From contig CAWCKH010000004.1 in assembly GCA_963796055.1 (NCBI GenBank), forward strand, positions 1,728,001-1,792,000: 64,000 bases of DNA, read 5' to 3'. A program made the translations under genes and the position numbers. This document shows, piece by piece, positions 37,719 through 43,626 of the stretch. The notes below the pieces were generated by a model. That model searched no databases, was not told the origin of the DNA, and worked only from the letters and a program-made list of their open reading frames with translations. How positions within the stretch are numbered: the first letter of the stretch is position 1; the number at the start of each line of letters is the position of its first letter. This DNA comes from an uncultured delta proteobacterium. Its GTDB lineage: Bacteria; Myxococcota; Myxococcia; Myxococcales; Myxococcaceae.

Positions 37719-38092
37719 TCAGAGCGAGGCGCCCTCGCTGCTCTTCCCGTACTTGACACTGCAGCCGTACGGCTCGCTGGTGCTCGGCGACACCGACTGC
37801 CCGGCGAGCAGCGCGCTCACCGCCTTCTCCACGAAGTTGGTGCGGTGCTCCGGCCGCGCGGGTCGTCGTCGATGCCGCCGGCGTAGCGGAGCACGCCCTT
37901 CTCGTCGATGACGAACATGTGCGGGGTGGTCTTCGCCCCGTAGGCCCGGCCCACATCGCCGCCCGGGGCGTGCGAGGTCCCGACCTCGTCCCGGAGGGTG
38001 AAGGGGGGCGCCGGCTGTCCCACGTCTGCTCCCAGAGCGGGGATGGCGAGCGACAGGGAGGCACAGACCAGCAGCGGACGGACGAGCGACAT
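37719..38092 (-). pseudogene. Redoxin/AhpC-TSA thioredoxin-family gene with internal deletion and frameshift
   Basis: VGQPAPPFTL joined directly to VGRAYGAKTTPHMFVID; tail NFVEKAVSALLAG..PYGCSVKY lies in another frame. Confidence 0.7.
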
Positions 38093-38100
38093 GGGGGTGT

Positions 38101-40236
38101 TCACCTCGGAGACGCGGAGAGACCCAGCGAGCCCGGCCCGGCGGCGGCCCGCTCCAGCGCGGTCACCACCGTGTCGGCGGTGAGCAGCTCGGGCAGCACC
38201 TCGGGCTGGTCCGGATGCGCCGGGGAGTAGACCAGGTACATCGGCACGCCGGCGCGCCCGTGGGCGGCCAGCCTGCGCGCGATGCCCGCGTCGCGCCGCG
38301 TCCAGTCCGCCACCAGGACCTGCGTCCGGGTGCGCGCCAGCACCGACTGCACCGGCTCCGAGGCGAGCACGGTGCGCTCGTTGAACTTGCAGCTCAGGCA
38401 CCACTCGGCGGTGAAGTCGACGAGCACCGGTCGGCCCTGGGCGAGGCTGCGCGACACCGCCTCGTCGCTCCAGGCATCCCGTCCCGCCACCGGCGTCGGA
38501 CCCGGGCCGAAGCGCAGCGCGACCCAGCCAGTCGCCAGCAGAACCAGGACGCCGCCCAGGAGGACCGGCTGGCGGCGCCACGTGCCCCACGCCCAGGCCA
38601 CGAGGGCGAGCACCACCAGGAAGGCGAGCAACCGCACCACAGCGTCCACCCCCGCGAGCGAGCCGAGGATGCCGGTGAGCCACACCCCGGTTCCGAGCAA
38701 TGCGAACCCGAGCAGCTGCTTCGCCCGCTCCATCCACACGCCGGGCCGGGGCAGCCGGCGGCGAAGACCGGGAACCAGCACCAGGACCGAGAATGGCGCG
38801 GCCAGGCCGAGCCCCACCGAGGTGAAGACGGCGAGCACCACCGGTGCGCTCGCGGCGAAGGCGAATCCCACCGCCGTTCCCAGCAGCGGTGCGGAGCAGG
38901 GAGTGGCAAGCACCACCGCCAGGACGCCCTCCCCGACGCTCCGCAGCGGGCCGTGGGCATGGTCCACCGCGGCGACCAGCGTCCCGGTTCCGTGGCTGGG
39001 GACGGTGAGCTCGAAGACCCCGAGCAGGTTGAGCGCGAAGAGCAGCACCACTCCCGACAGCACCGCCACGAAGAGCGGCTCCTGGAACTGGAAGCCCCAG
39101 CCCACGGCGTGCCCGGCGGCCCGGAGCCCCAGCACCGCCAGGGACAGGACGAGCAACGAGGCGAGGATGCCCCCGGTGTACGCCAGCGCGTGCATCCGCA
39201 CCGACCCGTGGTCGGCGTGGACCGTCCGGGCGAAGCCGTAGGCCTTGAGCGCCAGCACCGGGAACACGCAGGGCATGGCGTTGAGCAGCACGCCGCCGAG
39301 GAACGCGAGGAGCAGCATCCAGGCCAGGCCCGGGGTGCGCGCGGGGACCGGGGGGCTCGAGGCGGCGGTGTGCGGCACCAGCCCGGGCGGCAGCGCGAAG
39401 GGAGCGCTCACCTCCAGCGTGCCCCCGCTGGCCAGCGCGACCACCCCGGCGATGCGGGGCGGGGTGGAGGCGGGGTCGGGCGACGCCTTCCCCCAGAGCC
39501 GGAGCTTCCCGGGCGCCTCGGCAATGCCCTGGACGACGAGGATGCCGGCGAGCCGTTCCGGGACGAAGGCGTCGGCCGGGGCGAGCGCCTCGGGGCTTCC
39601 GTCGGCGCGCTCCACCGTCAGCTCGCCCTCGAACGGCTGGCCGGGGACGAAGGGGGTGGTTCGCCGGATGCTGACCCGGAGACCGGCGCTGGAGGGTTCC
39701 CGGGGTACCCGTGCCGCGGCCGCATCGAGGAGCGAGGCACCGGCCGCATCCGCCCGCCGGGGACCGACCCCCAGCACCCGGGTGAGCTCGAACCGCGCCG
39801 GGATGCACTGGACCTCGCAGACCAGCACCTCGACGGTGGCGACGATGGTCAACGGAGGGTGCACGTCCGGCTGCGCCCGGGCCGCGGTGAAGAGCACCAC
39901 CTCGCCGCCGTAGCCGTAGCTGGTGATGGAGCCGTCCGGGCTCCGGTGCACTTCCGGGGCGGGCCAGCCGAGCGGGCCGGTCGAGACGCGCGGCGCATCC
40001 CATACCACCTCGCTCGCCAGCCCCGCCTCGCCCGGATTCTTCCAGTAGATGTGCCACCCGCGCGCCATCTGGAACTGCACTCCCAGCCGGAAGGCATCGC
40101 CGGGCTCCACCTGGGTCAGGTCGGAGACGAGGGTCGCCTGGACCCTGGGCTTGCCCTCGTAAATTCCCCCACTGGCAGTGGAGGCGGGCGCCGGGGCGGC
40201 AGCCACGAGCATCGGAAGGAACCAAGCGGCAAGCAC
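38101..40236 (-). CDS. dsbD: DsbD-like thiol:disulfide interchange protein
   Basis: GWHIYWKNPG, VCEVQC, LNAMPCVFPVL, LATPCSAP, DFTAEWCLSC; start estimated. Confidence 0.88.
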   Translation of the reverse strand: MLAAWFLPMLVAAAPAPASTASGGIYEGKPRVQATLVSDLTQVEPGDAFRLGVQFQMARGWHIYWKNPGEAGLASEVVWDAPRVSTGPLGWPAPEVHRSPDGSITSYGYGGEVVLFTAARAQPDVHPPLTIVATVEVLVCEVQCIPARFELTRVLGVGPRRADAAGASLLDAAAARVPREPSSAGLRVSIRRTTPFVPGQPFEGELTVERADGSPEALAPADAFVPERLAGILVVQGIAEAPGKLRLWGKASPDPASTPPRIAGVVALASGGTLEVSAPFALPPGLVPHTAASSPPVPARTPGLAWMLLLAFLGGVLLNAMPCVFPVLALKAYGFARTVHADHGSVRMHALAYTGGILASLLVLSLAVLGLRAAGHAVGWGFQFQEPLFVAVLSGVVLLFALNLLGVFELTVPSHGTGTLVAAVDHAHGPLRSVGEGVLAVVLATPCSAPLLGTAVGFAFAASAPVVLAVFTSVGLGLAAPFSVLVLVPGLRRRLPRPGVWMERAKQLLGFALLGTGVWLTGILGSLAGVDAVVRLLAFLVVLALVAWAWGTWRRQPVLLGGVLVLLATGWVALRFGPGPTPVAGRDAWSDEAVSRSLAQGRPVLVDFTAEWCLSCKFNERTVLASEPVQSVLARTRTQVLVADWTRRDAGIARRLAAHGRAGVPMYLVYSPAHPDQPEVLPELLTADTVVTALERAAAGPGSLGLSASPR

Positions 40237-40324
40237 GGTTGGCAGCCCTAACAGGTCGGAGCGGCAACTGCTTCCCTGCTCCTCACCGCGAACGGATCCT
40301 CCCTTGCAATGGTCCCGGGGTGCC

Positions 40325-40552
40325 ATGTCGGCCTACGTGGACCCGGACGAGCTGATGCTGTTCAGCGTGGGAATGGTGCTGGGCGTCGATTCCCTCGACT
40401 ACATGGTCGACGTCGTGCTCGACCGGCGCCTGACCCGAGCCGACCACCGGAAGCTCTCGCTCGCGCTGGAGCGCAAGGGCGGGAAGCTGCCGGTCCGCGT
40501 CGACGAGGTGGTGCATCTCGTCGCCCAGCCCCGGTCGGCCCGCCCCAACTAG
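40325..40552 (+). CDS. Small hypothetical protein
   Basis: 75-aa ORF MSAYVDPDELMLF..., divergent from dsbD, coding-like codon usage. Confidence 0.6.
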   Translation: MSAYVDPDELMLFSVGMVLGVDSLDYMVDVVLDRRLTRADHRKLSLALERKGGKLPVRVDEVVHLVAQPRSARPN

Positions 40553-40571
40553 AAGCCTGTAGGACATCGCC

Positions 40572-40590
40572 GACTGCGGCCGCCCTGACC
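40572..40590. repeat. 19-bp direct repeat, copy 1
   Basis: GACTGCGGCCGCCCTGACC, identical to 41685-41703. Confidence 0.9.
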
Positions 40591-40707
40591 TGACCTACGG
40601 GCACCGGACCGCCAGCAAACGGCCTCCTCCCGGACACGGTGGCGGTGGACGCCCCCTGCCGCTAGAGGACCGTTGCTCCGGCATGCCAGCCCTTAGGTGC
40701 ACTCCAC

Positions 40708-41682
40708 GTGAACGCCAGCATCGAGTTCCTCCGGACGTACGGCCCCATCCTGGTCTTCACCAGCGTGCTCCTGGAGCAGTCGGGGGTGCCCATCCCCTGC
40801 ACACCATGGCTCATCGCCTCCGGGGCGCTGGCCCGGCTGGGGCACGGGACGGTCGCGCTCCCCGTCGCGCTGGCCACCATGGCCGCCTCGATGGGCCACT
40901 CCCTCTGGTTCCTCGCCGGGCGAAGGTGGGGCAGCCGCGTGCTGCGCCTGGTCTGCCGGGTCTCCATCGAGCCGGACAGCTGCGTGCAGCGGACCGAGAA
41001 CGCCTTCACCCGCTACGGGGCGCGGGCGCTGATCGTCGCCCCCTTCATCCCCGGCCTCACCACGCTCGCACCGCCGCTGGCCGGAATGTCCGGGATGCGG
41101 TTCCGGCGATTCCTGGCGCTCGACGGCATGGGAGACCTGCTCTGGGTCACCACCTTTGTGGGCCTGGGCTGGCTCGCGGGCGAGCCGTTCTTCCGGGCGC
41201 TCGAGGCGGGGATGGCCTACGCCGGCTCCGCGGTGGGCTTCCTGGCCGCCGGCCTCGCCGCGTACCTCGCGTTCCGGTTCCTCCAGCGGGCGCGGTTCCG
41301 CTCCCAGCTGCGCGTCCGGAGGGTGTCGGCCGGAGAGCTCAAGCGACGGATCGACGAAGGCGAGGACCTGGTGCTGGTGGACCTCCGGCACCGCCGCGAG
41401 CTCGAGGAGTCGGGCACCACGCTCCCCGGCGCGCTGCACATCTCCCCGGACGAGCTGGACCGACGGCACCCGGAGATCGCCCGCGGGCGCGACGTGGTGC
41501 TCTTCTGTAGTTGACCCGACGAATGGACGAGCGCCCGGGTGGCGCTCCGGCTGAAGCGAAGAGGCATCTCCCGGGTCCGGCCGCTCGAGGGCGGGTACGC
41601 CGGGTGGGTGGCCGAGGGCTACCCGCTGGAGCGGTGGGCGCCCGCCGAGACCGCCAGCACCTCGCTCGCCTTCGGCGCCTAG
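40708..41682 (+). CDS. DedA/VTT-rhodanese fusion, predicted selenoprotein (UGA 41512-41514)
   Basis: DedA domain (EQSGVPIP, FIPGL); rhodanese LVDLR..LPGALH..VVLFCS-U-PDEWTSARVALRLKRRGISRVRPLEGGYAGW; TAG at 41680-41682. Confidence 0.88.
41529..41547 (+). promoter_or_regulatory. SECIS-like hairpin
   Basis: Perfect 7-bp stem GAGCGCC-CGGGT-GGCGCTC; loop starts 21 nt after UGA. Confidence 0.78.
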
Positions 41683-41684
41683 CT

Positions 41685-41703
41685 GACTGCGGCCGCCCTG
41701 ACC
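41685..41703. repeat. 19-bp direct repeat, copy 2
   Basis: Identical to 40572-40590. Confidence 0.9.
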
Positions 41704-41713
41704 GAGCTCGTCG

Positions 41714-42199
41714 TCATCCCAGCGGCGCGGCCTCGTCCGTCTCCGAGGGGATCGCCTCGCGGGGCTCGGACTGCTGGAGCTCCTCGAACATCCGCTCCAT
41801 CTGCTCGCCGAGCGCCTCCAGCTCCTCGCGGGCGAAGTTCTGCTGGACGAGGGGGAAGAGGTCCGTCTCCTCCTCCTCGACGTGGTGATCGATCAGCTCC
41901 TGGAGGACCTTCATCTTGGCGTCGAACTGCTCGTCCGATGCTTCCATCTCCAGGAGATCGGCGACGACCCGCTTGGCGGCGAGGTGCTCCTCGACTGCCT
42001 CGTTCAGCTTCTCCCGGAGCGGCCCCACGTACACCGCGGGGTAGAAGATCTTCTCCTCGATCTCCCCGTGCGCGGCGAAGGCGTCGGCGATCTGCTCGAA
42101 GAGCCCCTGCTTCTCGCCCTCGTCCTCGGCCGCCTTGTACTGCTCGAAGAGCCCCTTCACCTCCTGGTGCTGGTGCTTCAACAGCTTCGTCGCGTCCAC
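41714..42199 (-). CDS. Hemerythrin/HHE domain protein
   Basis: QHQEV, HGEIEEKIFYP, EEH, HHVEEEE. Confidence 0.9.
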   Translation of the reverse strand: MDATKLLKHQHQEVKGLFEQYKAAEDEGEKQGLFEQIADAFAAHGEIEEKIFYPAVYVGPLREKLNEAVEEHLAAKRVVADLLEMEASDEQFDAKMKVLQELIDHHVEEEETDLFPLVQQNFAREELEALGEQMERMFEELQQSEPREAIPSETDEAAPLG

Positions 42200-42372
42200 G
42201 GCATGCCCCTGTCGTCGGCGGTCCATCCGGGGCGGCCCGACATGGGCAACCCGGGTGCCGTCGAAGCTGGACACGGCGAGGAGGTCCGTCCACCCCCGGT
42301 CGACCCTCCTGCGCGAAGCCGCCAGCCCGGCCGGTTGCCCGTCCGGTGCAGGGATCTGCTGCAATGGGGGCC

Positions 42373-43626
42373 ATGGCCGGCCGTCAGGAGCTGTGGGTGC
42401 GCGCGGTGACCGACAATTTCCGCCTGGCGTTCTCCACCTTCTGGGGGCACCGGCTCCGTTCCATGCTCACCCTGCTGGGCATCGTCATCGGAGCGGCCAC
42501 CGTCGTGTCGATGATGGCCCTGCTGGAGGGGCTCCGGAACAAGGTGGACGAGGACCTGACGGGGCTCGGCTCCAACGGCTTTCAGATCCAGAAGTTTCCC
42601 AACGGTTTCGGCAACTTCGACTTCGACCGTCTGTCCAAGCGCCCCAACCTCACCATCGAGGACCGGGACGACATCGAGCGCCGGCTCCCGGACATCATCG
42701 CCGCCACCGGCGAGGCCTGGGACTTCGGGGTGAAGATCTCCACCGACCGCTACGAGACCCGGCCCAACATCCAGGTGGCGGGCGGGACGGCGGACTTCTT
42801 CCTGACCAACGCCATGGACATCGCGTCCGGGCGCGCCTTCAACGTGCAGGAGGTCGCGGACGGAGAGCGGCTGGCGGTGCTCGGCTCGAACGTGGCGGAC
42901 GTCCTGTTCCCCGGCGTGGACCCGATCGGCCACGAGGTACGGATCCGCACCCGGCCGTTCCGGGTGATCGGGTTGATCAAGCGCAAGGGGGCGTTCGTCG
43001 GCGGCTTCCAGCAGGACGACGTGGTGGTGATCCCGATCAACGCCTTCTTCCCGCTCTGGGGGAAGAACCGCTCCTTGAACATCAGCATGCAGGCGGCCAC
43101 CCCGGAGATCCTCCCCCGGGCCATGGAGGAGGTGCGCCAGCTCGTGCGGCGCCGCCACAACCTCAAGCCCCAGCAGGAGGACGATTTCTTCATCTTCTCC
43201 AACGAGTCCGCCACCCAGGCGTTCAACCAGATCTCCTCGGTGGTGACCGCGGCCAGCTTCGGGGTGTGCCTGCTGTCGCTCATCGTCGGCGGCATCGGCA
43301 TCCTCAACATCATGCTGGTCTCGGTCACCGAGCGGACCCAGGAGATCGGCGTCCGCAAGGCGCTGGGGGCACGCCGCCGCCGCATCCTCGGGCAGTTCGC
43401 GACCGAGGCGATCATGCTCTCGCTGGTGGGAGGGATCCTCGGCGTGCTCGGAGGGGCGCTGGTGGCCTTCCTCGCCCGCTGGGCCTTCAACTTCCCCACC
43501 TCGGTGCCCACCTGGGCGGTGGCGCTGGCGCTGGCGATGAGCTCCGGTGTGGGGCTCATCTTCGGCATCTACCCTGCCGCCCGCGCGGCCCGGCTCGACC
43601 CGGTCGAGGCGATGCGCACCGAGTGA
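42373..43626 (+). CDS. MacB/FtsX-family ABC permease
   Basis: LRSMLTLLGIVIG, GGIGILNIMLVSVTERTQEIGVRKALGA, YPAARAARLDPVEA. Confidence 0.92.
   Translation: MAGRQELWVRAVTDNFRLAFSTFWGHRLRSMLTLLGIVIGAATVVSMMALLEGLRNKVDEDLTGLGSNGFQIQKFPNGFGNFDFDRLSKRPNLTIEDRDDIERRLPDIIAATGEAWDFGVKISTDRYETRPNIQVAGGTADFFLTNAMDIASGRAFNVQEVADGERLAVLGSNVADVLFPGVDPIGHEVRIRTRPFRVIGLIKRKGAFVGGFQQDDVVVIPINAFFPLWGKNRSLNISMQAATPEILPRAMEEVRQLVRRRHNLKPQQEDDFFIFSNESATQAFNQISSVVTAASFGVCLLSLIVGGIGILNIMLVSVTERTQEIGVRKALGARRRRILGQFATEAIMLSLVGGILGVLGGALVAFLARWAFNFPTSVPTWAVALALAMSSGVGLIFGIYPAARAARLDPVEAMRTE

Follow-up and report, generated by a model that had tools for sequence, protein, structure and literature searches.

The window analysed here is a stretch of 64,000 nucleotides from an uncultured member of the Myxococcaceae (GCA_963796055.1, contig CAWCKH010000004.1, positions 1,728,001 to 1,792,000). 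At 40708..41682 on the forward strand, it carries a gene for a DedA(VTT)-rhodanese fusion of 324 codons plus a TAG stop, provided that an in-frame TGA at codon 269 is read through. The GTG start of this gene agrees with the 268-residue forms held in databases, and the frame runs for 268 residues up to the TGA at 41512-41514 (VVLFCS-TGA-PDEWTSARVA), beyond which 55 open codons lead to the TAG (41515..41682), completing the rhodanese fold and including the motif VRPLEGGYAGW. The translation thus bears out the first-pass annotation, which had placed the TGA within the rhodanese loop and followed the frame through 55 codons to that motif. The fusion that it had proposed is likewise recovered, as both Pfam domains score above their cut-offs in the 324-residue read-through product: the DedA/VTT membrane domain (PF09335; 40792..41172, residues 29-155) reaches 59.2 bits against a gathering cut-off of 33.9, and is followed by the rhodanese domain (PF00581; 41326..41613, residues 207-302). 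The DedA domain contains a C83-x8-C92 pair in an arginine-rich, probably cytoplasmic loop (40954..40983). In the rhodanese domain, C267 (41506..41508), at the end of a beta strand, aligns to the canonical active-site cysteine, and the TGA would supply selenocysteine 269 in the context C-S-U-P. A putative bacterial SECIS hairpin follows at 41529..41547, on the same strand as the rest of the gene. A predicted model of the 324-residue product has a mean pLDDT of 84 and a pTM of 0.74, with low pLDDT (65-67) at residues 81-100, around C83 and C92.

The gene is preceded by a small ORF and lies near a divergent DsbD-like gene (38101-40326, reverse strand) with DsbD_N, DsbD_TM and thioredoxin domains. 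After the latter, at about 37820-38060 on the same strand, there is a short stretch that, judged by eye, resembles a redoxin gene with an internal deletion, and the long ORF containing this redoxin-like stretch gave no Pfam match. On the other side, a hemerythrin-domain gene is encoded convergently at 41714-42364 (reverse strand), and a hemerythrin gene is seen in 7 of the 10 long-flank relative loci plus the window. A scan for promoters and terminators found none, and Rfam gave no match within 40200-42500.

The TGA codon and its downstream hairpin

Codon 269 was compared in 130 homologous loci from two phyla and from metagenomes, the window's own locus counted and some of the metagenome loci being near-copies, and reads TGA in 97 of them, TGC in 21, TGT in 12, and TAA or TAG in none. 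The pairing of TGA with cysteine claimed in the first-pass annotation is therefore found, with 97 TGA against 33 cysteine codons and nothing else. Of the three outcomes that it had named as fatal, a non-cysteine residue in homologues is contradicted by the cysteine found at the site, a misread TGC or TGT by the conservation of TGA across 97 loci, which excludes a sequencing error, and a lack of selenocysteine machinery by the complete set of genes described below. The homologous motif that it had given was also correct, both C267 and C269 being invariant among 36 aligned full-length database homologues. Within the family, 20 of 151 genomes (the window's own included) have a full-length match, always with a single TGA at codon 269, while five genomes of another family contribute four TGA and one TGC. 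In the second phylum, sampled around a genome with Thermodesulfobacteriota in its title, 22 of 401 genomes have a match; of the 24 copies spanning the codon, 19 carry TGA and five cysteine, and one further fragment lies outside the site. Metagenomes gave at least 594 matches, the best 80 of which add 53 TGA and 27 cysteine forms. Close relatives of the window's gene are titled Myxococcaceae or Myxococcota MAGs, and one genome (G499) has a cysteine and a selenocysteine paralogue of the fusion (L165 and L185) together on a single contig. Past the TGA, residues are kept even though their synonymous codons vary, with G286 in 76/76, L293 in 75/75 and R291 in 74/75 rows, each using four codons. As for sequencing data, a soil contig that may come from the source site covers 41453-41657 with one differing letter, and two RNA runs, seemingly from one data set, hold only relatives less than 90% alike; among the matches listed, none differs at 41512-41514, and these data were not used as evidence.

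The hairpin has a perfect stem (41529-41535 paired with 41541-41547) and the loop CGGGU, which lies 21 nt past the TGA, and folds by itself at -12.1 kcal/mol. The bSECIS constraints, as set out in PMC13188914, comprise a loop of 3-9 nt, a stem of 4-16 bp, a G at loop position 1 or 2, a spacing of 16-37 nt and an MFE of -7.5 or lower. With a loop of 5 nt, a stem of 7 bp, a G at loop position 2, a spacing of 21 nt and -12.1 kcal/mol, the hairpin lies within all of these ranges, which upholds the geometry of the 7-bp hairpin at SECIS distance described earlier. Taken by itself, the hairpin is only modestly unusual: in this DNA of 70% GC its folding energy shows no excess over shuffled sequence (z from -0.05 to +0.73), and a comparable stem follows 49 of 2547 long TGA-ending ORFs genome-wide, 25 of them having G as the first or second loop nucleotide; the corresponding figures for TAG-ending ORFs are 16 of 1229 and eight.

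It is by being conserved among homologues that the hairpin stands out from chance. The loop G followed by G or U is kept in all 97 TGA loci and in 9 of the 33 cysteine loci. Codon choice within the stem and loop is nearly fixed in the first 78 TGA loci (S275 as AGC in 78/78, A276 as GCC in 78/78, V278 as GTG in 68/68 and A279 as GCG in 76/78), and with shares of 1.0, 1.0, 1.0 and 0.97 these four lead all synonymous sites in the gene, the next-most-fixed site having a share of 0.81 and the gene-wide median top-codon share being 0.51. In 28 cysteine loci, the shares at the same four sites are only 0.35-0.63. The hairpin core is kept in 78/78 TGA loci as against 2/28 cysteine loci, a contrast for which Fisher p-values ignore relatedness, and in just one of the nine cysteine loci with an identical peptide. 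Of 67 distinct rows, 32 close the stem with C-G and 24 with G-C, while 11 have no pair there, a pattern reached by 0 of 500 shuffles (a control that also ignores relatedness), and the closing pair switches eight times on the tree, a change which is, from its pattern, compensatory. RNAalifold recovers the identical helix, and in seven loci the loop codon changes from Arg to Ser with the G-U still kept. A quick tree was built from the first 106 loci less five partial rows (101 in all), with codon 269 and the hairpin codons excluded; on it, the selenocysteine/cysteine label switches seven times in a direction-free count, five of these switches being forced. In five independent selenocysteine/cysteine pairs, hairpin and TGA agree 4.3-4.9 times and disagree 0.0 times on average, and the sign test gives a median p of 0.0625-0.125, as with only five independent pairs on supported branches it is unable to reach 0.05. 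On this comparative evidence, the hairpin is under selection in the TGA forms only.

A genuine stop at the TGA, leaving a truncated or pseudogenised rhodanese, or else a non-specific read-through as Trp or Cys, would agree with the 268-residue protein given by databases and with TGA being the commonest stop codon in the genome. Both are nevertheless extremely improbable, since no other stop occurs and the TGA never lies anywhere but at the cysteine codon, the protein sequence encoded by the 55 codons past it is conserved, and the hairpin follows the TGA over the seven inferred switches; tryptophan, moreover, is not among the residues at the codon-269 column of 150 representatives. The TGA almost certainly encodes selenocysteine, so that the gene would produce a full-length DedA-rhodanese selenoprotein of 324 residues.

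Selenocysteine machinery and database records

The genome, which is 98.5% complete, has selA, selB and selD above their cut-offs as well as a tRNA-Sec, so that all four genes whose presence the first-pass annotation had wished to see confirmed (selC being the tRNA-Sec) are present. SelD (C4:58620-59549 of this genome, G000, reverse strand; L010) itself has an in-frame TGA, within C-A-G-U-A-A-K, followed by a hairpin unlike the DedA-rhodanese pattern. Co-occurrence is a weak test within the family: selA is found in 20/20 genomes with the TGA form, but also in 135 of 151 family genomes overall, a tally that takes in the unpublished genome G049 and on which no conclusion depends by itself. Each of the 18 second-phylum genomes with a TGA form has at least one of selA and selB, although selA was not found in G723, nor selB in G468 and G625. 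The same is true of all 22 second-phylum genomes with the fusion gene, cysteine forms included, and selA/selB genomes with cysteine forms are G344, G499, G562, G592 and G621. In G344, no tRNA-Sec was found among the 150 of 650 candidates scored, though selA/selB are present.

Two further candidates were noticed in the window's genome. The first is a second rhodanese gene (C3:316130, reverse strand; loci L054 and L157) with an in-frame TGA in VFYCSNRH-U-TAS, which is followed by 38 open codons; its hairpin has 6 bp and a G-rich loop of 5 nt and lies at the same distance as in the DedA-rhodanese gene; it resembles form 1 of the rhodanese selenoproteins. The second is a thioredoxin/TlpA-like ORF (C1:75100, forward strand; fold assigned by eye), which has a TGA in WMPG-U-GVC (UxxC), 103 open codons beyond that TGA and a hairpin whose loop has GG, and is a probable selenoprotein. 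A genome-wide scan for selenocysteine codons by hairpin and motif proved too noisy, missing the DedA-rhodanese gene and yielding two leads only.

That standard annotation would truncate the protein, as had been predicted, is seen in its own database record of 268 residues and in 82 of 120 homologues among the matches listed, which end at C-x right before codon 269; of the remainder, 36 have CxCP and two have neither. At the protein level, among the 150 best clusters (50% identity), 38 end likewise before the selenocysteine codon, and the proteins that do so are mostly without a rhodanese annotation. No U occurs in the 320 proteins examined, from a source that may not show U-bearing records.

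Domain anatomy and known relatives

Sulfurtransferase-type rhodaneses have an active-site loop of six residues. In the alignment, C267 at the strand's end takes the place of the canonical catalytic cysteine of solved rhodaneses, and the loop counted from there is two residues longer than in those structures, coming back into register from U269. Because of this extra length, U269 may be a second loop nucleophile or, counting back from the helix, the catalytic one. Both the fold expected of a rhodanese and a cysteine at the first loop position (C267) are present, with a fold match to 3gk5 (Z 16.6, rmsd 1.5, 100 aligned), and a sulfur/selenium transferase activity of the fusion may be inferred. 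GlpE and PspE sulfurtransferases share the fold (GlpE 1gn0: Z 14.3, rmsd 2.2, 105 aligned) and the cysteine at the canonical position, but here the loop exceeds theirs by about two residues, has a second Cys/Sec and belongs to a membrane-fused domain.

The other cysteine site, in the DedA domain, has C83 in 138 and C92 in 137 of 150 distant representatives and both together in 106/106 loci; the pair is absent from YghB. Arginine-rich segments precede both cysteine regions (8 K+R in residues 71-106 and 7 in 190-210) which, following the positive-inside rule, suggests that both sites face the cytoplasm. Several two-domain rhodaneses align to model residues 83-88 through about 310, a weak hint from the predicted model that the rhodanese domain might dock on C83/C92. 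Comparison of the model matched no solved DedA structure and was uninformative on the fold of the DedA domain.

The relationship to the undecaprenyl phosphate (UndP) flippases of COG0586 (YghB/YqjA, UptA, PA4029) raises the question of whether the selenoprotein is still a flippase of UndP or another lipid, with the rhodanese in an accessory or regulatory role. Homology to E. coli YghB is clear (hhalign probability 98.8), the DedA core with its two proline-kinked re-entrant segments is shared, and so is the first Glu, YghB E39 matching E23 just before the DedA domain. PMC10127716 also assigns rhodanese fusions to COG0586 as putative UndP flippases, with the remark that the "connection to UndP is unclear". 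However, YghB D51, R130 and R136, essential according to the same source, align to T32, P112 and T118 in the window's protein, which in addition has the extra cysteine pair and the rhodanese domain. At position 112, 141 of the 150 representatives have K or R, in favour of a retained function, but R is not among the seven commonest residues at position 118. Scores against the UptA models, 36/300 and 34/250, are far under cut-off, and deletion of P. aeruginosa PA1209, a DedA-rhodanese by its description, left fosmidomycin susceptibility unchanged (PMC12893004). Retention of the flippase function is unlikely. In 25 TGA loci, the window's included, codon 112 (41041-41043) encodes Pro where the second re-entrant segment otherwise keeps Lys or Arg, a replacement which suggests that transport chemistry is altered or lost in this group.

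Among known families, the best NCBIfam match of the fusion is NF041203 (rhodanese_LYCAU, form 3, CxU; E 1.3e-22), with which it shares the loop: LYCAUP[SN]EATSA...GGW as published (PMC12013277) and LFCSUPDEWTSA...GGY here. Members of NF041203 are standalone proteins of about 130 residues (about 126 model positions) with a hydrophobic N-terminus, unlike the DedA-fused and probably cytoplasmic domain described here, which stays below the 115-bit cut-off both as a whole protein (79.8) and alone (81.6); no model of NCBIfam 20 is above cut-off for the fusion. Standalone C-x-U rhodaneses with a similar hairpin also occur at L065 (4968-5381, forward strand) and L051, and genes of the L065 type are missed by NF041203 as well, since L065 scores 98.3 against 115. 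Cysteine-form fusions ("DedA family protein/thiosulfate sulfurtransferase GlpE"; PA1209; COG0586 with PF00581) have the same architecture and both the C-x8-C and CxC motifs; the window's protein shares 41-50% identity with the nearest full-length forms among the matches listed, and its gene differs from the cysteine-form fusions by the UGA and SECIS at the second cysteine. The TsoB rhodanese/DsbD fusion-like family (NF045694; Table 1 of PMC13188914) likewise joins a membrane domain to a rhodanese selenoprotein, but its membrane domain and motif (UxxxxU) differ, and the fusion has no NF045694 match.

The CxU rhodanese domain type is thus already known as a predicted selenoprotein (NF041203), a point absent from the first-pass annotation, and the cysteine-form fusion is known too; what appears to be new is the selenocysteine form fused behind a DedA domain, as a variant of the CxU type. 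The surprise is moderate, CxU rhodaneses having been a predicted selenoprotein type for years. In the available portions of the literature, rhodanese form 3 CxU is present in Table 1 of PMC13188914 (2026, 119 families), where DedA, VTT and SNARE are absent; DedA is absent from PMC9312934, PMC5029168 and PMC1976440; and PMC12013277, in its text and four supplements, has no DedA/VTT, its CxU examples being standalone. The reading also covered passages of PMC8679861, PMC2744661, PMC10470534 and PMC2864759, the text of PMC13745706 and the BSepDB paper (PMC13326102). The literature searches listed no paper on a selenocysteine-containing DedA-rhodanese, although BSepDB itself could hold such genes.

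Genomic context and possible function

Among 105 loci and the window, recurrent neighbours of the fusion gene encode nitroreductases (30), YceI (22), MarR (21), WrbA-like proteins (5), pirin (5), DoxX (3) and response-regulator/oxidoreductase proteins (3). The typical order is MarR-YceI-(WrbA)-nitroreductase-fusion gene on one strand, largely in one clade, and the pirin, DoxX and response-regulator/oxidoreductase neighbours belong to other lineages; a Xanthomonas cysteine form likewise adjoins a pirin and an SDR gene. We take neighbours of the MarR/YceI/pirin/nitroreductase/DoxX type to belong to quinone and electrophile stress responses, and a literature search found no paper on such a cluster.

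The reading favoured here, over a selenite/thiosulfate importer and over an UndP flippase, is that the selenoprotein would work at the cytoplasmic face of the inner membrane as a thiol/sulfur redox relay, under electrophile or sulfane-sulfur stress. The C267/U269 loop would react with its substrate, either sulfane sulfur or an electrophile or quinone, yielding a persulfide or a selenenylsulfide that C83 and C92, facing the same compartment, would take over or resolve. The DedA domain, with its UndP-binding residues gone, would anchor the enzyme or present a lipid-phase partner, and selenocysteine would be a more reactive, interchangeable version of the second cysteine. This proposal draws on the four conserved Cys/Sec positions, on the arginine-rich segments before both cysteine regions and on the redox neighbour genes; against it, the redox operon is largely that of one clade and does not surround the window's gene. 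A strict relay is further weakened by the fact that the two motifs are not lost together, as 8 of the 150 representatives have CxC without C-x8-C, seven the reverse, and one neither. Taken as a whole, mechanism included, the relay has slightly better than an even chance of being right.

By analogy with pairs of a thiosulfate transporter and a sulfur carrier, the selenoprotein could instead import chalcogen oxyanions (selenite, thiosulfate or polysulfide), the DedA domain transporting and the rhodanese receiving the sulfur or selenium atom. Work by Ledgham in 2005 is said to have linked a dedA gene of C. metallidurans to selenite uptake, and the megaplasmid of strain CH34 carries a 324-residue cysteine-form fusion with both cysteine motifs (NC_007974.2; L162:4986-5960). 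The first re-entrant-helix Glu is kept as well. The CH34 fusion is, however, only a candidate for that selenite-linked dedA, selenium or sulfur uptake genes are absent among the recurrent neighbour clusters annotated, and every conserved cysteine is assigned to a single inferred face, leaving none along a membrane path, so that an importer is rather unlikely.

An extension of the redox relay would be that the DedA scaffold has turned from flipping phosphate lipids into a four-Cys/Sec oxidoreductase, linking the C-x-U chemistry via C83/C92 to a neutral polyprenyl lipid, for example the quinone pool, in the former UndP site. This is unlikely, but if true, the fusion would be a widespread and overlooked membrane selenoenzyme of soil bacteria, and the DedA superfamily would gain an enzymatic role. 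Selenocysteine marks redox-active sites, and its presence therefore hints at the chemistry of DedA-rhodanese fusions. The near-invariant SECIS, together with matched cysteine controls in several lineages, offers a good natural data set for the rules of bacterial SECIS elements, and the bacterial selenoproteome would gain a membrane-bound architecture that is seemingly common yet systematically mis-called.
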